A DNA stretch of 5,869 nt from Nanopusillaceae archaeon (lineage in GTDB: Archaea > Nanobdellota > Nanobdellia > Nanobdellales > Nanobdellaceae). The notes under the pieces are model-generated. The model saw only the letters and a program-made list of their open reading frames with translations, did no database searches and had not been told where the DNA came from. Within the stretch, counting starts at the first letter, position 1. Each line of letters starts with the position of its first letter. The stretch lies in contig JBMFJD010000017.1 of the NCBI GenBank assembly GCA_049974095.1, forward strand, positions 1 through 5,869. The letters run 5' to 3'. The position numbers were made by a program, and so were the translations under genes. Of the stretch, positions 1 through 5,869 are shown piece after piece.

Positions 1-152
1 GAAATTATAAAGATATTAGTAATATAATAAAAGATGAATATTATAATAAGTATGATGTAGATATATCAAAGAAGATATTAGATTTAGATAATGAATATAA
101 AGATATAGTAGAGGATTTATATAATATTGATATATTGAAATTTTTAAATTAG
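1..152 (+). CDS. 3' end of a CDS truncated by the window start (first full codon at nt 3). Probably a fourth member of the tandem paralog family downstream.
   Basis: Frame 3 is open from nt 3 to TAG at 150-152: NYKDISNIIKDEYYNKYDVDISKKILDLDNEYKDIVEDLYNIDILKFLN*. It shares DISKK, an acidic D/Y/E-rich tail and a short hydrophobic C-terminus with paralog C (FDISKKLNEY...YDNIDIDKLLI*). The same TAG + T-run + GTTTTGATG junction follows it. The ORF track omits it because it has no start in the window. Confidence 0.55.
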   Translation, partial: NYKDISNIIKDEYYNKYDVDISKKILDLDNEYKDIVEDLYNIDILKFLN

Positions 153-168
153 TTTTTTGGTTTTGATG
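150..168 (+). repeat. Gene-junction unit A: TAG stop + T6 + GG + GTTTTGATG. This is an orphan gene start; only a 9-codon mini-ORF follows.
   Basis: Sequence is TAGTTTTTTGGTTTTGATG, with the exact 9-mer at 160-168. The ATG at 166 opens only MFFKRKNKY* (166-195). Confidence 0.6.
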
Positions 169-227
169 TTTTTCAAAAGAAAAAATAAATATTAAAAAAG
201 TTATACTATAAAAAAGTTTTTTCATGG

Positions 228-279
228 AAATGTTTATTTATTGACAAATATTTATAAATATTTTCTATAACATTATTTT
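228..279 (+). promoter_or_regulatory. Promoter-like AT-rich spacer upstream of CDS 280-729 (TATA-box-like or sigma70-like elements).
   Basis: Elements: AAATGTTTAT (228-237, also at 3783-3792); AAATATTTATAA (246-257, also at 2049-2060); TTTATAAATA (251-260) beginning 29 nt before the ATG at 280. An alternative reading is TTGACA (241-246), a 19-nt spacer, then TATAAC (266-271). Either reading puts the transcription start at or next to the ATG, giving a leaderless mRNA. There is no SD. AT-rich DNA produces such matches by chance. Confidence 0.35.
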
Positions 280-729
280 ATGGCGTTGGAAATAACAAAG
301 GAAATAATAGATGCATTAAATGAAGAGGTAGAGACGGTAGGGGATAAAATGAGAAATATAGAAATAGCAACAATAAAGATTGTAGATAACAAAGTTTTGG
401 AAGTACAACTTTCAAATAAACAATATCCTTTTAGGGTAGCGTTAACTGATGAGACGGAATTATTAATATCAAATAAAGAATTAATAAATATATGGGTTAA
501 ATACATGAAAGAGATGTTTAGGGAGTATGAGGTAAGTTATTATAATTATAGTGATGAGGATGGGGATAATTTATATGTAAGGTTTACGGTATATAAAAAA
601 TTCAATGATAAACTTATGAATATGATAACCTGGGATTTTCAAATTAGGAATAAAAAAAGTATTAGCATACCATCAGATTTATTGAAAAGGTTTGTTTATG
701 AAAAGTTTAATATTATTTTTGTTTATTAG
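280..729 (+). CDS. Hypothetical protein, 149 aa, no recognisable domain.
   Basis: ORF track 280..729. It has an ATG start, the same purine-rich, C-poor codon usage as its neighbours, and a TAG stop embedded in junction unit B. I recognised no catalytic or binding motif. Confidence 0.7.
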   Translation: MALEITKEIIDALNEEVETVGDKMRNIEIATIKIVDNKVLEVQLSNKQYPFRVALTDETELLISNKELINIWVKYMKEMFREYEVSYYNYSDEDGDNLYVRFTVYKKFNDKLMNMITWDFQIRNKKSISIPSDLLKRFVYEKFNIIFVY

Positions 730-749
730 TTTTTTTTATTGTTTTGATG
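727..749 (+). repeat. Gene-junction unit B: TAG stop + T8 + ATT + GTTTTGATG.
   Basis: Sequence is TAGTTTTTTTTATTGTTTTGATG. TAG at 727-729 ends the upstream CDS and ATG at 747-749 starts the next. Confidence 0.65.
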
Positions 750-1592
750 AATGCAAAAAGTAAATTGCTAGGGGAAATAAAATATTATTTAGAGAAATTT
801 AGGAAAAGGGGATTAGAGGTTAATATAAGGGAATGGAAAACAATGATGGAAATAGAGATTAATTATATTAACTTTGAAAAACAAAAAGAAATTATTAATG
901 AACTTATAAAAGTACATGAAATAAAGAAAAAATATTTAAGAAATAAGGAATTAGAGTATTTTAATAGATTATTAGAGGATTATTTACGTATTAGGATAAC
1001 ACATTATTTTATTAATAAAAAATTGAATGAATTGAAAAGGGTAAGAGATGGGTTAAAAAGTTTGTATGAAAATTATGATGAAAATGAATATTTGGAACAA
1101 TTAAAAAGCGAAATAGAAATTAAATTTAATAGATTGCTAGAGGATATAAAGGATATTGAAAATAAGGAAAAAGAAATAAAGAGATTAATAGAGAAATATT
1201 TAAAGTATTTGAATAAGGAAATTGAATATGATGAGGAAATAAAAGGGATTGAGGAATGGATGAATAAGGGAGGATTTAAGAATAGTAAATTAATGAGGAT
1301 TATAAAAGATAAAATAAAGAGTATATTAAATAATAAAAATATTAAGTTATTTTGGTTTGGTAATGGTATGATTTTAGTAATGGTTTATGAAAATAAATAT
1401 TTCTATAGAGGATGGATTTATGAAAATAATAAGTTTTATGTTATTGATTTAAGAAATAATAAGTATATGGATGTAAGTAATTTTATAGGTAATAGGTATG
1501 GGGGAAGAATATTAAAAATGCTGGGGGATGATAGAGATAGAGATATAATTTATGATATAAGGGAAAGGTCAATATATGATTTTTTAGTTTAG
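747..1592 (+). CDS. Paralog A of an uncharacterised three-part family: N-terminal alpha/beta region, central K/E/L-rich helical region, C-terminal beta-rich region.
   Basis: ORF track 744..1592 starts at TTG. I prefer the ATG at 747 supplied by the junction 9-mer. Full-length similarity to 2090-2962 and 2976-3773: NFEKQKEII; LNELKRVRDGLKSLYENYDENEYLEQL; KYLKYLNKEIEYDEEI; NKFYVIDLRNNKYMDVS. I recognised no known domain. Confidence 0.85.
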   Translation: MNAKSKLLGEIKYYLEKFRKRGLEVNIREWKTMMEIEINYINFEKQKEIINELIKVHEIKKKYLRNKELEYFNRLLEDYLRIRITHYFINKKLNELKRVRDGLKSLYENYDENEYLEQLKSEIEIKFNRLLEDIKDIENKEKEIKRLIEKYLKYLNKEIEYDEEIKGIEEWMNKGGFKNSKLMRIIKDKIKSILNNKNIKLFWFGNGMILVMVYENKYFYRGWIYENNKFYVIDLRNNKYMDVSNFIGNRYGGRILKMLGDDRDRDIIYDIRERSIYDFLV

Positions 1593-1606
1593 TTTTTGTT
1601 TTGATG
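1590..1606 (+). repeat. Gene-junction unit C: TAG stop + T5 + GTTTTGATG.
   Basis: Sequence is TAGTTTTTGTTTTGATG. TAG at 1590-1592 ends paralog A and ATG at 1604-1606 starts the next CDS. Confidence 0.65.
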
Positions 1607-2014
1607 GCGGAAAACAACAATTCGGATTTGGTTTTTAAATTGAGAAATGGAAAATTAGAAGAGAAAGATATAGCGGAATTAGTAAAAAGGGCATTAGAAG
1701 AAAGAAATGAGGAAAGTTATTATTTATTGAAAGTTAGGGAATGGGACGAAGTATATGAAAGGTATGAAAGTATAAAAGAAGTAAAAATTATTTATGGAAA
1801 TGCGGAAAAGATATTAATAAATGAGGAATATAATTATGATGAGAAAAGAAAAGAAAGAGAATATATAATAATTCCAAAAGATAGATTGGTTATATTATTG
1901 GATAGAGAATATGTATATTCAGAAAGTAAAGGGGAAAGGGAGGGGCTTACGGTTTTTGTATTTACTGGCGATGGCTGGCATTCTCATACAGTCTCTGAAA
2001 TAAATTATTTCTAA
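1604..2014 (+). CDS. Hypothetical protein, about 136 aa, no recognisable domain.
   Basis: ORF track 1601..2014 starts at TTG; the ATG is at 1604. It has the same compositional signature as its neighbours and a TAA stop followed by a doubled T-run/TAG unit. The C-terminus GLTVFVFTGDGWHSHTVSEINYF looks beta-rich. No motif recognised. Confidence 0.7.
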   Translation: MAENNNSDLVFKLRNGKLEEKDIAELVKRALEERNEESYYLLKVREWDEVYERYESIKEVKIIYGNAEKILINEEYNYDEKRKEREYIIIPKDRLVILLDREYVYSESKGEREGLTVFVFTGDGWHSHTVSEINYF

Positions 2015-2039
2015 TTTTTTAGTTTTTTTAGTTTTGATG
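2012..2039 (+). repeat. Gene-junction unit D: TAA stop + T6 + AG + T7 + A + GTTTTGATG. This is an orphan gene start; only a 7-codon mini-ORF follows.
   Basis: Sequence is TAATTTTTTAGTTTTTTTAGTTTTGATG, with the exact 9-mer at 2031-2039. The ATG at 2037 opens only MIFNKYL* (2037-2060). Confidence 0.6.
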
Positions 2040-2040
2040 A

Positions 2041-2083
2041 TTTTCAATAAATATTTATAAGGTTTTAATATAATTATATTATA
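2041..2083 (+). promoter_or_regulatory. Promoter-like AT-rich spacer upstream of paralog B.
   Basis: AAATATTTATAA (2049-2060) is identical to 246-257. TTTATAAGG starts at 2054, 30 nt before G2084 of the next GTTTTGATG. A second TATA-like run, TTTTAATATAAT, lies at 2063-2074. An alternative sigma70-like reading is TTGATG (2034-2039), a 16-nt spacer, then TATAAG (2056-2061). Confidence 0.35.
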
Positions 2084-2092
2084 GTTTTGATG
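2082..2092 (+). repeat. Gene-start unit E: TAGTTTTGATG, with no upstream CDS stop attached.
   Basis: The exact 9-mer is at 2084-2092. ATG at 2090-2092 starts paralog B. Confidence 0.6.
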
Positions 2093-2962
2093 GAAGAGGA
2101 AGAAAAAATATTAAAAGAAATAAAAGAAATAGTAGAAAGGTTTAGGGATAGAGGGTTAAAGATAGAGATGGAAGAAAAGGATAATATGATAAGTATACTT
2201 ATGACATATGAAAATTTTGAAAAACAAAGGGAGATAATAGGGAGTATTTCAAAAAAGTATAAAATAAGGTTAAATAGGGTAAGGAAAGAATATTTAAAAT
2301 ATGTTAAAAAGCTTTTAGAGGAACCTAAAACTATAATAGTTTATTATGTTTTAGCATATAAGAATAAAGATAATTTATTAGAGGTAAAGGAATTTTTAGA
2401 GGAAAGTTATAATAAGGATGATGAAAATTATTATTTACAATTGTTAAAGGAAAAATTAGAAAATGAATTTAATAATTTTGTTAAAGAAAATATAAAACCA
2501 TATTTAGAAAGAGAGGAAAAACAATATGCATTATTAAAGAAATATTTAAAGTATTTAAATAAAGAAGTTGATTATAATGAGGAAATAGAAAATATTGAAT
2601 CTTTATTAAATAGGGTTTATTATAAAGGGGATTATCATTTAAGTGATGATATATATAAACTATATGCATTAATAAGGAAAAAAGTAAGGATGGTTATTAA
2701 TCAAAAAAATATTAAATATATTAAAATTGATCATGGTATTTTACTTATTATGACATATAAATACAATTTTAGTGATGAATCAGATATTATATATGAAAAA
2801 AATAAGTTTTACTTAATTGATTTTAGGAATAATAAGGTTATGGATATTAGCAATACTATAGAAAAAGAATATACGGGAGGGGTATTAGAGGTTATTGATG
2901 AGAATAATTTATATATATTGGATGATTTACGTAAAAGGAATATATACGAGTTATTAATTTAG
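2090..2962 (+). CDS. Paralog B of the uncharacterised family.
   Basis: ORF track 2087..2962 starts at TTG; the ATG is at 2090. Shared blocks with A and C: NFEKQREII; KYLKYLNKEVDYNEEI; NKFYLIDFRNNKVMDIS; C-terminal NIYELLI*. Confidence 0.85.
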   Translation: MEEEEKILKEIKEIVERFRDRGLKIEMEEKDNMISILMTYENFEKQREIIGSISKKYKIRLNRVRKEYLKYVKKLLEEPKTIIVYYVLAYKNKDNLLEVKEFLEESYNKDDENYYLQLLKEKLENEFNNFVKENIKPYLEREEKQYALLKKYLKYLNKEVDYNEEIENIESLLNRVYYKGDYHLSDDIYKLYALIRKKVRMVINQKNIKYIKIDHGILLIMTYKYNFSDESDIIYEKNKFYLIDFRNNKVMDISNTIEKEYTGGVLEVIDENNLYILDDLRKRNIYELLI

Positions 2963-2978
2963 TTTTATTGTTTTGATG
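2960..2978 (+). repeat. Gene-junction unit F: TAG stop + T4 + ATT + GTTTTGATG.
   Basis: Sequence is TAGTTTTATTGTTTTGATG. TAG at 2960-2962 ends paralog B and ATG at 2976-2978 starts paralog C. Confidence 0.65.
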
Positions 2979-3773
2979 GATAGTTTATTATGGGAGATTA
3001 GGATTTTGTTAGAAAAATTAGTTAAGGATAAGGGATTATATGTGTATGAAAAAGAAAAGGTAGGGGATTCATGGATAGATATCAATATATATTATACAAA
3101 TGTTAAAAAACAAAAAGAGATGGTAGAGGAATTATTAAGAAAAAATAATATTGATAAAAGGTATTATAGATTTTTTAGTGATTTATTGGATAAAAGTTAT
3201 AAAATTGAAATTCTTAGTGATTACGTAAGTAAAAGAATGAATGAATTAAGAAAATTAAGGGATAAATTGAAAGAAATATATGAAAATTTTAGGGAGGATG
3301 ATTATTTAAGAAAATTAGAGGATAATATAAATGAGGAATTTAAATATGATTTAGAGGATTTAAATAATTATTTAAAAGAAGAAAAATTATATTTGGATTA
3401 TTTAAATGGAAAAATTGATTATAATAAGGATATAAAAGATTTTGAGGATGATTTAATTTTTAGTGATGAATTAAAATATAAATCATGGATCTATAGAAAA
3501 ATAAAAAGATATATTAAGAAATTATTGAATAGTAGGAAATTTAAAATTATATGGATTAAAAGAGGGTTTGTTTTAGTAATATTATATAAAGATAAAGGGG
3601 ATTTTGGAAATGGTAAACATGTATATTTTTATAATAAGTTTTACTTAATTGATTTGAGAAATAATAAAATATTTGATATAAGTAAAAAATTGAATGAATA
3701 TATTGATGAGTTTAGGGATGATGATATATTTGATATGTATGATAATATAGATATAGATAAATTATTAATATAG
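2976..3773 (+). CDS. Paralog C of the uncharacterised family.
   Basis: ORF track 2973..3773 starts at TTG; the ATG is at 2976. Shared blocks: NVKKQKEMV; MNELRKLRDKLKEIYENFREDDYLRKL; LYLDYLNGKIDYNKDI; NKFYLIDLRNNKIFDIS; C-terminal IDKLLI*. The translated protein has no Ala, Pro or Cys. Confidence 0.85.
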   Translation: MDSLLWEIRILLEKLVKDKGLYVYEKEKVGDSWIDINIYYTNVKKQKEMVEELLRKNNIDKRYYRFFSDLLDKSYKIEILSDYVSKRMNELRKLRDKLKEIYENFREDDYLRKLEDNINEEFKYDLEDLNNYLKEEKLYLDYLNGKIDYNKDIKDFEDDLIFSDELKYKSWIYRKIKRYIKKLLNSRKFKIIWIKRGFVLVILYKDKGDFGNGKHVYFYNKFYLIDLRNNKIFDISKKLNEYIDEFRDDDIFDMYDNIDIDKLLI

Positions 3774-3819
3774 GTTTTTGATAAATGTTTATATGTGTTT
3801 TTTATAATATATAATATAA
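3774..3819 (+). promoter_or_regulatory. Promoter-like AT-rich spacer upstream of the AAA+ ATPase gene.
   Basis: A degenerate junction, TAGGTTTTTGATAAATG, lies at 3771-3787. AAATGTTTAT (3783-3792) is identical to 228-237. TTTATATG (3788-3795) starts 32 nt before G3820. TTTATAATAT lies at 3801-3810. An alternative sigma70-like reading is TTGATA (3778-3783), a 19-nt spacer, then TATAAT (3803-3808). Confidence 0.35.
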
Positions 3820-3828
3820 GTTTTGATG
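3818..3828 (+). repeat. Gene-start unit G: AAGTTTTGATG.
   Basis: The exact 9-mer is at 3820-3828. ATG at 3826-3828 starts the ATPase CDS. Confidence 0.6.
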
Positions 3829-4950
3829 ACGGAAAAACAAAGTAATTTATTAAGAATATTTGAGAGAGCTAGAAAAGAAAAGGTAGCAATAGGATTGTTT
3901 GGGGGTTATGGAATAGGAAAGAGTAGTTTGATTTATCAATATTCATTAATGAAAAGTATGGAATCTGGTAGAGAATTAAAAATATGGCATGAATTGACGG
4001 AGAGAGAGAAAAAAGAGATATTAGAAAATCCTGAAAAGTACTTTATAGTAGTAGATATTAAGGGTAGCTTAATATCTTTGGATAATTTAGTTATACCAAT
4101 ACCTGTAAATGATGGGATAAAATGGGAGGTACCTTTATGGATGAAAGTATTAGAAAATGAGAAAAGTATGGGGATATTATTTATTGATGAGGTTAATATG
4201 ACATTACCATCATTACAAAGTTTATTATTTGAATTAGTATTTCAAAGAAAGTTGGGAGAAAGTACAATAAAGGGGGATGTATTAATAATTACTGCGGGAA
4301 ATGATCTAGAAAGCAATAATGTAGCTAAAGAATTACCACAACCACTTATAAATAGAATGATATTTATTAATGCAAATGAAATATTTGACATTGATGCATG
4401 GTTAGAATATGCAAAAAATGTTAATATTGATAATAGAATAATAGGATGGGTATTATTTAATAATAGAAATATTAGTTATTCTAATGATGTTATGAAACAA
4501 TCAACCACACCTAGATCTTTGGAAATGTTAAGTAAGATGATTAATGGGGAAAAAGATATGAATTATATAAGAATGGTAGCATATGGATTATTAGAACCTA
4601 ATGATGCATTACAATTTACTGCATTTATAGAATTATATGAAAAGTTTAGTGATATAGATAAGTATATTGATAATATTGAATTATTATATGATCTTAAGGA
4701 AGATGAGAGGATAATAATTATGATGAAAATAACAGAAAGATATATTAATGATAAGTTAACATTAGAGAAATATTATAATATATTGGATGGGTTAAGTAAT
4801 ATAAGTAAAATGTTAGTGGTATTTTCATTAAGGTATTTGAAATATCAAAATAGTGATAAGTTTAAGATATTGTTAGATAAGGTAATAAAAGAAAATGGTA
4901 AGGTTTACAATTTGTTAGGGCAAATGTTAGAATTTGAAAATAAATTATGA
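3826..4950 (+). CDS. MoxR-like (AAA_5 / CbbQ-NorQ-GvpN type) AAA+ ATPase.
   Basis: Walker A GGYGIGKS (3901-3924). Walker B ILFIDE (4174-4191). Sensor-1-like LIITAGN (Asn at 4300-4302). PLINRM follows at the position of the MoxR-type ALLDRF arginine motif. The single AAA+ core is followed by a helical C-terminal region of about 190 aa. The gene sits directly upstream of, and overlaps, a VWA-type partner, which is the classic MoxR arrangement. ORF track 3823..4950 starts at TTG. Confidence 0.85.
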   Translation: MTEKQSNLLRIFERARKEKVAIGLFGGYGIGKSSLIYQYSLMKSMESGRELKIWHELTEREKKEILENPEKYFIVVDIKGSLISLDNLVIPIPVNDGIKWEVPLWMKVLENEKSMGILFIDEVNMTLPSLQSLLFELVFQRKLGESTIKGDVLIITAGNDLESNNVAKELPQPLINRMIFINANEIFDIDAWLEYAKNVNIDNRIIGWVLFNNRNISYSNDVMKQSTTPRSLEMLSKMINGEKDMNYIRMVAYGLLEPNDALQFTAFIELYEKFSDIDKYIDNIELLYDLKEDERIIIMMKITERYINDKLTLEKYYNILDGLSNISKMLVVFSLRYLKYQNSDKFKILLDKVIKENGKVYNLLGQMLEFENKL

Positions 4951-5869
4951 TGGATGAGGAATTATTAAAGTTAGTAATTACTAAAAATTTTCCATTGTTT
5001 GCACCAATATTAAGTAAGATAAGAATTAAAGAAAGTAGGGAAATATCATATGTGGCGGGATTGAATTATAAAGAAAAAACAATATATATTAATCCTGATG
5101 AATTCAATGAATATATTAGTAAAGAAAAAATGTTTATAATATCACATGAAATAATGCATTATCTATTAGTACATGATCCTGAAGCATTGAGGGATAAAAA
5201 TTTATTATTAGTTTTTAATTTAGTTAGGGATGCCCAAATAAATCATATATTACATAAACAAATGAAATATATGGCAAGGGGGGTTATAACATTGGATATA
5301 TTAGAAAGGATGAGCGAAAAAGTAAAAGAATACTTTGAGGGGGATGTTGAGAAATTCCTTAATGAGGATGAGTATTTTATTGTTAAATTGATGTTAGAGG
5401 ATAAGAAAGTTAATAATATGGTTAATAAGATGATTGATGTATTAGAAAATAATAGTGATAACCTAGATGAAACTAGTGAAAAAATTAGAGATATATTAAA
5501 GGAGAATGGGGTTAATATAGATATTGATGAAATTAGTAAGAATATAGTAAAAGAATATAATGAAAGTAAGGAATTGGGAGAAATGAGCGATGAGGAAATA
5601 AAAGAAATGGTTAATGAGGGTATGGAAATGTTAGAGAAAGGTATGTTATTAAGTAAAATGCTTAATCCTGAAAGTAAGGAATTAGATATAAAGTTAAGGA
5701 AAAAGAGGATTAAATGGAAAGAAGCATTAAGGTATATTATGAGTGAGATAGGGGCATTGGCAACTGATTATGATTTAACAAAATTGGATAAAAAAGCATG
5801 GGTATTAAAGACATATGTACCTGGGGTTATAAAGGAAAATGAAAGTATTAATGTAATAATTGGTATAGA
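4947..5869 (+). CDS. Putative zinc metallopeptidase-domain / VWA-like domain protein (DUF2201_N + DUF2201-type architecture), 3'-truncated by the window end.
   Basis: I translated this frame by hand from ATG 4947 (or ATG 4950) to the window end and found no stop: MMDEELLKLVITKNFPLFAPILSKIRIKESREISYVAGLNYKEKTIYINPDEFNEYISKEKMFIISHEIMHYLLVHDPEAL... The HEIMH motif is at 5145-5159, with a third His at 5172-5174 (HExxHxxxxH). The layout matches the putative metallopeptidase domain usually fused to a VWA-like domain: a hydrophobic FPLFA... helix, then '(T)IYINPDEF', then HExxH. The final residues ...YVPGVIKENESINVIIGI(D/E) look like the first beta-strand leading into a MIDAS DxSxS motif just beyond the window. 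The start overlaps the ATPase stop (ATGA / TGATG). Confidence 0.8.
   Translation, partial: MMDEELLKLVITKNFPLFAPILSKIRIKESREISYVAGLNYKEKTIYINPDEFNEYISKEKMFIISHEIMHYLLVHDPEALRDKNLLLVFNLVRDAQINHILHKQMKYMARGVITLDILERMSEKVKEYFEGDVEKFLNEDEYFIVKLMLEDKKVNNMVNKMIDVLENNSDNLDETSEKIRDILKENGVNIDIDEISKNIVKEYNESKELGEMSDEEIKEMVNEGMEMLEKGMLLSKMLNPESKELDIKLRKKRIKWKEALRYIMSEIGALATDYDLTKLDKKAWVLKTYVPGVIKENESINVIIGI

Follow-up and report, generated by a model that had tools for sequence, protein, structure and literature searches.

An orphan nanoarchaeal protein family in a cassette-like tandem array directly upstream of MoxR-like ATPase and VWA genes

We analysed a 5,869-nucleotide stretch of contig JBMFJD010000017.1 (assembly GCA_049974095.1) from a Nanopusillaceae archaeon, hereafter the window. 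It carries three complete members (A, B and C) and the 3′ end of a fourth member of one protein family, interspersed with other genes, linkers and TATA-like elements, followed by genes for a MoxR-like AAA+ ATPase and a zincin-like metallopeptidase/VWA protein:

3..152, + strand: 3′ end of the fourth copy (284-aa lineage), 49 codons plus stop, matched to a gene on related contig L013
160..168, + strand: isolated linker end GTTTTGATG (orphan copy), shortly after the stop codon, with no real gene behind it
246..256, + strand: TATA-like element AAATATTTATA, a putative archaeal promoter about 25–35 nt 5′ of the 149-aa gene
280..729, + strand: 149-aa ORFan gene outside the family
730..746, + strand: conserved inter-cassette linker (T-run and ATTGTTTTG) that runs up to the A start codon (repeat families D5/D7/D15)
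747..1592, + strand: paralog A, 281 aa (P0001, 100% identity)
1194–1229 (A) and 2540–2575 (B), + strand: KYLKYLNKE(I/V)(E/D)Y block (motif search)
1425–1478, 2798–2851 and 3630–3683, + strand: NKFY(V/L)ID(L/F)RNNK..D(V/I)S block (motif search)
1593..1603, + strand: short linker TTTTTGTTTTG (repeat analysis)
1604..2014, + strand: 136-aa gene, homolog of rudivirus terminal-region ORFs (phrog_10536, E 3.6e-21)
2031..2059, + strand: remnant linker GTTTTGATG (2031–2039), then TATA-like AAATATTTATA (2049–2059), 5′ of B
2090..2962, + strand: paralog B, 290 aa (identical to P0009)
2963..2975, + strand: linker TTTTATTGTTTTG (repeat analysis)
2976..3773, + strand: paralog C, 265 aa (identical to P0002)
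3387–3422, + strand: LYLDYLNGKIDY, the counterpart in C of the KYLKYLNKE block (motif search)
3783..3793, + strand: TATA-like element AAATGTTTATA, 5′ of the ATPase gene
3826..4950, + strand: MoxR-like AAA+ ATPase, 374 aa (phrog_1297 ‘ATPase’, E 1.4e-39)
3901–3924, + strand: Walker A motif GGYGIGKS of the ATPase
4174–4197, + strand: Walker B motif ILFIDEVN of the ATPase
4947..5869, + strand: zincin-like metallopeptidase plus VWA protein, N-terminal 307 of 443 aa (PF13203 DUF2201_N, E 1.7e-9)
5145–5159, + strand: zincin motif HEIMH; the VWA domain starts at the window end

A, B and C each begin with ATG at the positions first annotated. The initial annotation proposed that they align along their whole length, and pairwise BLASTP with compositional adjustment bore this out (A–B, 39% identity across 279 aa, E 6e-50; A–C, 38%, E 5e-36; B–C, 31%, E 2e-22). 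It had also named low-complexity K/E/N/I composition as a potential source of the likeness. In a Smith–Waterman control with 200 shuffles of the partner sequence, every shuffle fell far below the real score (z = 33.6 for A–B, 28.4 for A–C and 19.5 for B–C), ruling out compositional matching. The quoted shared blocks were located in the sequence, and judged from these alignments A, B and C are true paralogs. The truncated reading frame at the left edge had been taken for a probable fourth copy of an array that probably extends leftward. Its 49-aa tail by itself had no significant similarity to A, B or C (z about 1–1.5). The tail is, however, the C terminus of a full-length 284-aa gene on the related JGI contig L013 (669–1523; z 29.8), with 0 differences in 49 codons; since that gene encodes a full-length family member (P0005), evidence from outside the window confirms that there is a fourth copy and that the array continues leftward.

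The tandem array is real, yet it is interrupted by two unrelated genes, at 280–729 and 1604–2014 (hhalign probability <1% each). The 149-aa protein encoded by the first has no Pfam match and scored 0.14% against the family profile; its ortholog is kept on L013 (dN/dS 0.17). The 136-aa protein scored 0.4% and is thus unrelated to the family; by tblastn it matched 18 Sulfolobus/Acidianus rudivirus records, including SIRV1 ORF134b. The linker sequence GTTTTGATG occurs in 7 copies versus 0.1 expected, and the orphan copy at 160..168 is probably a remnant cassette start. The linker at 730..746 is the exact breakpoint at which a 278-aa cassette is present or absent relative to L013. The organisation is cassette-like: what is gained or lost is bounded by conserved linkers. 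A TATA-like element recurs 5′ of the 149-aa gene, B and the MoxR gene, and these putative promoters suggest that the array is transcribed as three units and not as a single operon. The description ‘operon-like’ accordingly holds only in part, as the array is broken up by the three elements and the two inserted genes.

About seven paralog lineages are common to different loci and older than strain divergence, which shows that the duplications are old and have been retained. Ortholog dN/dS values of the paralogs (0.12–0.37; 0.17 for A and its L006 ortholog) are comparable to those of the ATPase (0.20–0.25), indicating purifying selection. Loci hold from one up to five family copies, and the B lineage is represented elsewhere by a 160-aa C-terminal version adjoining MoxR, shortened yet conserved. 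Divergence is mosaic across the window, and one MAG carries two divergent modules. Such variation bears on the idea that the paralogs are a host-interaction or anti-defence multigene family carried in a mobile element’s variable region, each targeting a different host or defence factor, with MoxR–VWA adjacency secondary. The array would then resemble the multi-copy anti-CRISPR paralogs at rudivirus termini, or multigene families such as those in large DNA viruses. Cassettes with conserved linkers, presence or absence exactly at a linker, mosaic divergence, the interspersed rudivirus ORF homolog and the two modules in one MAG would suit this idea, as would recurring promoter modules before monocistronic ORFs, a pattern for predicting archaeal-virus anti-defence genes (PMC11065993). 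We nevertheless regard it as quite unlikely: selection on orthologs is ordinary and purifying with no arms-race sign at this resolution, the lineages are old and stable, archaeal Acr proteins are typically much smaller than 265–290 aa, the paralogs gave no match to PADLOC or to a known Acr, and the strict position 5′ of the ATPase, held even at 43% ATPase identity (below), would be left unexplained.

The family had been called unrecognised, in agreement with searches that returned no match in Pfam, PHROGs, NCBIfam, PADLOC or PDB profiles and no Foldseek neighbour of the family models in PDB or BFVD. IMG/VR and INPHARED contained no member. An exhaustively read profile search yielded 12 true family members among 1.84 billion representative proteins, and 8 family proteins were found among 5.8 billion clusters; every one lies on a contig that is labelled Nanopusillaceae or is just as AT-rich (about 22% GC). 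By these searches the family is an orphan, so far known only from a single group of very small hot-spring archaea. Two members carry the JGI label ‘Skp family chaperone’, an identity that no profile match supports.

Confident AlphaFold2 models of A (pLDDT 83.6, pTM 0.65) and C (pLDDT 91.9, pTM 0.79) have a common order of secondary-structure elements, in which an N-terminal alpha/beta unit is followed by a heptad-patterned helix of 37–44 residues and then by a C-terminal part rich in beta structure, matching the head, helical middle and tail that the initial annotation had read from the sequence. Its suggestion of a coiled-coil middle gained from the periodicity of this helix (residues 112–155), in which a/d positions are 77% hydrophobic versus 23% elsewhere (p about 0.008). 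No catalytic signature, signal peptide or transmembrane segment was found in the paralogs, again as annotated; Cys is absent and each protein has only 1–2 His. The KYLxYLN helix and NxFYxxDxRN hairpin contain the invariant residues, which are mostly Tyr, Leu, Gly, Asn, Asp and Arg. The paralogs are thus predicted to be soluble and non-enzymatic, with a long amphipathic helix and a conserved beta-hairpin-rich C-terminal part. Several chains of the actin-capping protein CapZ alpha/beta recurred as top Foldseek matches to model C. Like CapZ, the paralogs are about 270–290 aa with helices mixed with a central antiparallel sheet, and CapZ’s heterodimerising paralogous subunits may count as a further likeness; although no other structure came nearer, CapZ was rejected as a fold relative (E 0.2–3, probability ≤0.14, TM-score about 0.2, rmsd 8–17 Å).

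The downstream ATPase has weak Pfam matches (AAA_5, Sigma54_activat), and its relatives carry PF07728, PF07726 and PF20030. The ATPase has distant homologs in 425 phage records, some of which are annotated MoxR-like, and on >100 IMG/VR contigs; no cultured nanoarchaeon was among the relatives. The zincin/VWA protein matches phrog_1314 (E 2.7e-18), and a MIDAS-type motif, DVSGS, is present in its full-length ortholog on L001/L013, which also matches PF09967, VWA_CoxE and VWA_2. The two proteins thus retain the motifs Walker A/B, HExxH and MIDAS-type DxSxS. The window has three PHROG matches, to these two proteins and to the 136-aa protein, and the ATPase–zincin/VWA dyad is also an adjacent gene pair in an N4-like phage.

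Neighbouring genes are almost all ORFans, and locus L010 is a 14-kb single-strand ORFan run with uniform linkers, a layout typical of archaeal virus genomes. No viral hallmark gene (capsid, portal or packaging) was recognised among the neighbours, and the contig also has possibly chromosomal genes (MCM and thermopsin-like). The phage-type dyad, the IMG/VR relatives of the ATPase, the rudivirus-like gene, the ORFan neighbours and the absence of cultured nanoarchaea among ATPase relatives nevertheless suggest that the region is probably an accessory, mobile or viral part of Nanopusillaceae (Nanoarchaeota) genomes. In the Acidianus two-tailed virus (ATV), MoxR (p618) and VWA (p892) proteins reportedly have a proposed role in tail development, acting on coiled-coil tail proteins. 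By that parallel the paralogs could be hetero-oligomerising, coiled-coil-bearing structural subunits of a nanoarchaeal virus or other particle that has gone unrecognised, and the MoxR–VWA pair would chaperone their assembly. Several old lineages side by side under purifying selection, the long heptad helix, the absence of enzymatic motifs, the phage-type dyad with a rudivirus-like gene and the L010 layout are consistent with such a role. We think it unlikely given the missing hallmark genes, the absence of family members from IMG/VR and INPHARED and the empty Foldseek search against viral structures; one to five copies and a conserved 160-aa version are also awkward for a structure of fixed stoichiometry.

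The initial annotation had suggested a survey of MoxR/VWA neighbourhoods, and this showed that every close locus, and one distant locus, has a family member directly 5′ of its MoxR-like gene. The arrangement, on the same strand, is found in the window, L013, L005, L011, L008 and L007 and in a second module of the NCBI MAG (ACP5GJ_02430–02450). In the distant L010, whose ATPase is 43% identical, the protein directly upstream (282 aa) matches the family profile (hhalign probability 94.5%, E 7.7e-8, 234 columns). The position is thereby kept in all six or seven independent family-bearing loci; one has a single, very divergent copy, still 5′ of the ATPase. No family member was detectable in the visible neighbouring genes of distant ATPases L098 (42%) and L099/L100 (48%), nor of L015 (47%), where the gene 5′ of the ATPase is off the contig, so the dyad does not require the family; many phage dyads likewise have no adjoining homolog. 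Other unrelated paralog families crowd the region, and a variable region rich in cassettes might by itself account for the co-location. The paralogs would then be functionally independent of their neighbours, a lineage-specific cytoplasmic family (holdase-like or scaffold, for example) that lies by chance in such an island. The separate promoter-like elements for paralogs and ATPase, the many paralog families, the ATPase relatives lacking the family and the JGI chaperone label all lean this way. This independence strikes us as rather improbable, as the label has no profile match behind it and the position 5′ of the ATPase persists at every family-bearing locus, including that with a single divergent copy.

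Adjacency is the one link between the family and MoxR–VWA, and from it we infer a physical or functional tie. Our preferred reading, to which we assign a probability of roughly 0.45, is that the paralogs are non-enzymatic client or adaptor subunits of a MoxR–VWA module located in a mobile or variable part of nanoarchaeal genomes, and so a lineage-specific third component of a phage-type module (MoxR-like AAA+ ATPase plus zincin-metallopeptidase/VWA). If it works like characterised MoxR–VWA pairs, the module would use its VWA/MIDAS protein to capture a segment of the paralogs, or of a target held by them; the ATPase ring would then remodel or release the captured proteins, and the fused zincin might process them. 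Different paralogs may be alternative adaptors or clients, or co-assembling subunits, in line with the two options of the initial annotation (diversified specificity or client modules, or a multi-subunit assembly). Against this preferred reading stand the apparently separate TATA-like promoters of paralogs and ATPase, the dyads that lack the family, the crowd of other paralog families in the region, the missing viral hallmark genes, the absence of family members from IMG/VR and the possibly chromosomal genes on the contig. The general MoxR–VWA mechanism, and ternary systems with a variable third protein, have been described (Kaur et al. 2020, PMC7159879).

Among known systems, ATV would share with this locus a MoxR and VWA pair, an archaeal mobile-element context and coiled-coil proteins lacking enzymatic motifs, although no sequence similarity to ATV proteins was found and ATV is absent from the tblastn matches. 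The phage AAA_5 plus DUF2201_N/DUF2201 dyad differs in that identity is only 21–28% and the paralog family does not lie beside phage dyads; it has the same order, ATPase then metallopeptidase/VWA, and phrog_1297/phrog_1314 are the best profile matches of the downstream genes. Examples of this dyad are genes 00011/00012 of the N4-like Erwinia phage Pastis and gp566 of Bacillus phage G. In the ternary systems the third protein is of the VMAP, iSTAND, FtsH or beta-propeller type (Kaur, Burroughs, Iyer & Aravind, eLife 2020, PMC7159879) and hosts are multicellular bacteria, whereas here the host is a reduced symbiotic archaeon, the ATPase falls in a phage-type clade, and the third component, in up to five tandem paralogs, lacks VMAP, STAND, FtsH, propeller and effector domains and has no relative by sequence or by fold. 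Like those systems, the locus combines adjacent MoxR-type AAA+ and VWA genes with a rapidly diversifying, lineage-restricted third protein, and its VWA protein has an additional domain, in this case a zincin-like metallopeptidase.

The credible genes of the window all lie on the + strand, in DNA of about 22% G+C over the 5,869 bp and with a very strong skew of G over C on that strand:

3-152, + strand, final 49 codons of a fourth family gene
280-729, + strand, 149-aa gene
747-1592, + strand, paralog A, 281 aa
1604-2014, + strand, 136-aa gene
2090-2962, + strand, paralog B, 290 aa
2976-3773, + strand, paralog C, 265 aa
3826-4950, + strand, AAA+ ATPase, 374 aa
4947 to window end, + strand, zincin/VWA protein, first 307 codons

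Across the whole window, at 18-30% GC, the (G-C)/(G+C) skew on the coding strand runs from 0.45 to 0.9, an unusually extreme depletion of C from the sense strand.

A, B and C aligned end to end in BLASTP with compositional adjustment (A-B, 39% identity, E = 6e-50; A-C, E = 5e-36; B-C, E = 2e-22), and local alignment against 200 shuffles of the partner gave z = 33.6, 28.4 and 19.5. This significance rules out a K/E/N/I compositional artefact, the alternative that the initial annotation had raised against its own proposal, and establishes the array as one of true paralogs. The 49-residue tail encoded at 3-152 is too short for significance against A, B or C (z about 1); its sequence recurs unchanged at the C-terminus of a complete 284-aa member encoded on a related contig, an identity that bears out the fourth copy suspected at 1-152. 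Both the observation of a tandem array and its hedged interpretation, as a structural assembly or a set of specificity or client modules, stand. The interspersed 149-aa and 136-aa proteins and a 192-aa protein of the related locus L005 were rejected as short family members (hhalign probability 2.4% or less).

Database searches agreed that the family is unrecognised. A, B and C reached best Pfam E-values of 0.0024-0.1, all far under gathering scores, and no weak Pfam family recurred among 16 collected members scanned singly (at most 3 of the 16 shared one). PHROGs, NCBIfam and PADLOC returned nothing significant for single family proteins, and a profile search of PDB sequences found no match. 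A word-indexed search of 5.8 billion clusters recovered 8 proteins and an exhaustive HMMER search of 1.84 billion representatives recovered 13, of which 12 belong to the family, whole or as fragments. The one other protein, P0018, is a repeat protein of 1,075 aa; it matches a 22-residue hairpin motif only, 12 times, and was set aside as resembling propeller blades at the level of the motif. INPHARED and IMG/VR yielded no member. Labelled members all come from ‘Nanopusillaceae archaeon’ MAGs or equally AT-rich hot-spring-type contigs, with one member contig binned, probably wrongly, as ‘Ca. Paceibacter’. A fragment identical to the database protein P0012 sits at the very end of contig L009 (about 40% GC, with a PolX gene), beyond an in-frame junction (2600-2997) that is almost certainly an assembly chimera, and this contig was rejected as family context. 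Also rejected, as remote members, were a downstream paralog family of locus L010 and a 254-aa protein of contig L015. The family is genuinely uncharacterised, narrow in taxonomic range and without detectable relatives.

MoxR-VWA pairs are widespread remodelling machines, but substrates are known for very few of them, and the version that occurs in many phages, an AAA_5 ATPase with a DUF2201 zincin/VWA protein, has no known client. Walker A (GGYGIGKS) and Walker B (ILFIDEVN) are both intact in the window ATPase, which matches phrog_1297 (E = 1.4e-39). Its own AAA_5 match is subthreshold, at E = 0.08 and 13.4 bits where the cutoff is 22; precomputed PF07728 (AAA_5) assignments exist for homologs of 42-49% identity, and more distant ones have PF07726 (AAA_3) or PF20030. 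Sequence search found no PDB relatives of the ATPase. Remote homologs, with 21-28% identity, are present in 425 phage genomes, where some cyanophage genes are annotated as MoxR-like, and in over 100 IMG/VR contigs. The zincin/VWA gene encodes HEIMH at 5145-5159 within a protein matching DUF2201_N, and in the full-length ortholog of this protein DUF2201, VWA_CoxE and a DVSGS MIDAS-type motif are present as well. In the N4-like phage Pastis, the ATPase and metallopeptidase genes are likewise adjacent.

Surveying the family for co-occurrence with MoxR/VWA genes, as proposed in the initial annotation, placed a member directly upstream of the ATPase gene at every locus of the set: the window, the related JGI contig (L001/L013), L005, L011, L008, L007, L010 and a second module in the NCBI MAG. 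In L005, L011 and L008 a 274-aa copy and a truncated 160-aa copy precede the ATPase. At L010, where the ATPase is only 43% identical to that of the window, the single upstream protein (282 aa) matched the family profile with an hhalign probability of 94.5% (E = 7.7e-8, 234 columns; shuffle z = 8.5). The association with the phage-type pair is reproducible. No family member was detectable among the genes visible on the L098, L099/L100 and L015 contigs, which carry more distant ATPase relatives, and the family is thus an addition to the dyad that is specific to its lineage. From conserved adjacency only, we infer that the family may be a non-enzymatic partner (client, adaptor or co-assembling subunit) of the MoxR-VWA-zincin module, a reading to which we assign a probability of roughly 45%. 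That the paralogs have no functional link to their neighbours is improbable given the same adjacency, and it would shrink the finding to an ordinary lineage-specific ORFan family.

AlphaFold2 with the family alignment gave confident models of the two members submitted (A, pLDDT 83.6 and pTM 0.65; C, pLDDT 91.9 and pTM 0.79), which share one order of elements: an N-terminal alpha/beta unit (helix, two strands, helix or helices, strand, helix), a helix of 37-44 residues with shorter helices returning after it, a set of four to seven strands bearing the invariant motif G...Y...Y..N.FY..D.RN....D, and short terminal helices ending in hydrophobic-Leu-(Ile/Val). In the A helix at residues 112-155, hydrophobic residues fill 77% of a/d positions and 23% of the others, a bias reached by 0.8% of shuffles. 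Family proteins contain no Cys and one or two His, and their invariant residues are of a structural or binding type rather than a catalytic set. Two members carry the JGI label Skp. The Skp/prefoldin jellyfish is an oligomer in which a small beta body is built from both chain ends and a helical-hairpin tentacle is inserted between them, and the secondary-structure order of the A and C models (beta-containing N-terminal part, long helix with returning helices, beta-rich C-terminal part) is compatible with it, in order only. Foldseek lists for the two models contained no Skp or prefoldin chain. At the profile level no match to either turned up: OmpH (PF03938) and prefoldin were missing from the listed 25 of 26 weak Pfam families for 16 members at E up to 1, and a PDB sequence search found no match. 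Skp/OmpH is moreover a periplasmic protein with a signal peptide, from organisms with an outer membrane, whereas the family is archaeal, its N-termini are charged (MNAKSKLLGEIKYYLEKFRKRG...) and lack a hydrophobic leader, and no signal peptide or TM segment was found in its proteins.

Comparison with the JGI contig (28,986 bp), which is 99.9% identical to window 726-5869, showed differences in the array. Five family genes are found there, and with the interspersed genes in brackets the order reads 284 aa, (150 aa), 278 aa, A, (136 aa), B and C, showing that the array does continue leftward, as had been supposed. The 278-aa copy is missing from the window, and its presence/absence breakpoint falls exactly at a conserved ~22-nt linker, TAGTTTTTTTTATTGTTTTGATG, found 5' of both the 278-aa gene and A:

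726-749 of the window, aligned with 2103-2120 and 2954-2973 of the JGI contig, breakpoint region

The difference indicates a gain or loss of a cassette by linker recombination, or possibly an assembly collapse. Within the 149-aa gene, 27 positions of window 402-704 (about 7-9%) disagree with the JGI contig, and 1-401 and 726 onward are essentially identical to it. A diverged patch between near-identical flanks marks the locus as mosaic, implying probable recombination between strains or with the second module. That module lies outside the window in the same Nanopusillaceae MAG at NCBI (ACP5GJ_02430-02450), where four tandem paralogs (284, 271, 279 and 278 aa) precede an ATPase with 89% identity to that of the window; either one genome carries two elements or the bin combines two strains.

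Among 21 members, a neighbour-joining tree resolved about seven lineages, each found in several loci, which places the duplications before the divergence of the sampled strains. Ortholog dN/dS was 0.17 for A, 0.37 for B, 0.26 for the 274-aa lineage and 0.12 for the 160-aa B-type copy, compared with 0.20-0.25 for the ATPase; such low values indicate that the family proteins are maintained and are neither decaying duplicates nor hypervariable. The 160-aa version of B lacks the N-terminal alpha/beta unit, is 98% conserved between loci and lies directly 5' of the ATPase gene:

L004, 2650-3132, 160-aa version of B
L005, 6112-6594, 160-aa version of B
L008, 304-786, 160-aa version of B
L011, 6122-6604, 160-aa version of B

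Its conservation suggests that the C-terminal two-thirds may be the functional core of the family protein.

Two further sets of repeated elements mark the gene boundaries:

160-168, 741-749, 1598-1606, 2031-2039, 2084-2092, 2970-2978 and 3820-3828, + strand, GTTTTGATG, a 9-mer of linker end plus start codon
246-256, 2049-2059 and 3783-3793, TATA-like AAAT(A/G)TTTATA (AAATRTTTATA), ~25-35 nt 5' of the 149-aa gene, B and the ATPase gene, respectively

The seven GTTTTGATG copies (0.10 expected) all lie on the + strand at or just after a gene boundary. Five are real gene starts; those at 160 and 2031 follow stop codons, open only tiny ORFs and look like what is left of lost cassettes. GTTTTG does not obviously resemble a Shine-Dalgarno sequence. 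The placement of the TATA-like elements suggests three putative short-leader transcription units (149 aa-A-136 aa, B-C and ATPase-VWA). Of the ‘operon-like’ array first described, the tandem same-strand arrangement holds and a single operon is not favoured. A sigma-70 promoter and terminator scan (44 promoter-like sites against 57 expected) used a bacterial model and is uninformative for an archaeon. Repeated elements also occur at other loci. Over its 14 kb, L010 is a single-strand run of small paralog families, including 13 consecutive ORFan genes at 5294-12795, from several unrelated paralog families, separated by near-identical 30-nt linkers, TAA ttttttaaattttaaaattttaaatttttg ATG. At least eight copies of a ~40-nt TATA-containing module, TTTATAAACATTnnGTACAATAAATAnTTATGG, occur in both orientations at L011 900-5300, abutting the start codons of small ORFs and of the 274-aa paralog, and this module is a putative repeated promoter of leaderless monocistronic genes. 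We also observed that 12 of the 18 L010 proteins, though unrelated, end in Ile (LLI, KLI or LSI); the linker or promoter may constrain the DNA there, or the proteins may have a common C-terminal signal. A multigene family for host interaction or anti-defence, carried by a mobile element, would fit this cassette and promoter architecture (compare PMC11065993), but the ordinary purifying selection on orthologs speaks against it, and we consider it improbable.

Neighbouring genes are almost all ORFans, the exceptions being a 243-aa AAA/clamp-loader-like protein, a thermopsin-domain membrane protein, an MCM further along the JGI contig and the 136-aa protein. The last matches phrog_10536 (E = 3.6e-21; residues 15-127 on model positions 6-113 of 117) and, by tblastn, 18 rudivirus records (E down to 2e-10), with ~32% identity to variable terminal-region ORFs of Sulfolobus and Acidianus rudiviruses such as SIRV1 ORF134b. 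Through this gene a nanoarchaeal contig is unexpectedly tied to viruses of crenarchaea. A 303/327-aa paralog pair on L013 (10499-12446) and a 329-aa protein on L010 (12805-13794) share the N-terminal motif IIDSS.Y..Y..G...E....C....., found no database match and are predicted to be another conserved ORFan of the same type of element. We saw no tRNA, Rfam feature, integrase or capsid gene in the loci examined. The region is best described as accessory and mobile-element-like, whether virus, plasmid or chromosomal island. Were it viral, the paralogs could be structural proteins of an unrecognised virus, in parallel with the tail proteins of ATV, which are reportedly MoxR/VWA-assisted; we regard this as unlikely, if somewhat less so than the anti-defence reading. 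Another, quite speculative reading would make the paralogs building blocks or specificity subunits, with a relative-less fold, of a previously unseen ATP-remodelled assembly of a Nanopusillaceae virus or mobile element, their hetero-oligomers being loaded, processed or disassembled by the MoxR-VWA-zincin module. If true, it would open the mobilome of ectosymbiotic nanoarchaea to molecular study for the first time and add a new class to the third components of MoxR-VWA machines.

The accessory gene content of Nanoarchaeota is poorly described, and the locus documents cassette-like gene gain and loss at conserved linkers in their very small genomes or mobile elements. An expanding non-enzymatic family consistently 5' of a phage-type pair is also a concrete, testable client candidate. 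Partnership with the MoxR-VWA-zincin module is the most economical reading, its analogue being the variable third proteins of MoxR-vWA ternary conflict systems (Kaur et al. 2020). In those systems the third protein works physically with the vWA-MoxR pair; what the family loci show on this point is conserved adjacency. The systems pair adjacent MoxR AAA+ and VWA genes (PMC7159879), as does the window locus with its MoxR-like gene, and their general mechanism is capture by the vWA protein and ATP-driven remodelling by the MoxR ring (PMC7159879). Their third component is a VMAP, an inactive STAND, an FtsH or a beta-propeller fused to vWA, usually with effector domains (PMC7159879), whereas Pfam scans found no VMAP, STAND, FtsH or propeller-type domain in A, B or C. 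The finding is a variation on a known type of system rather than a categorically new one.
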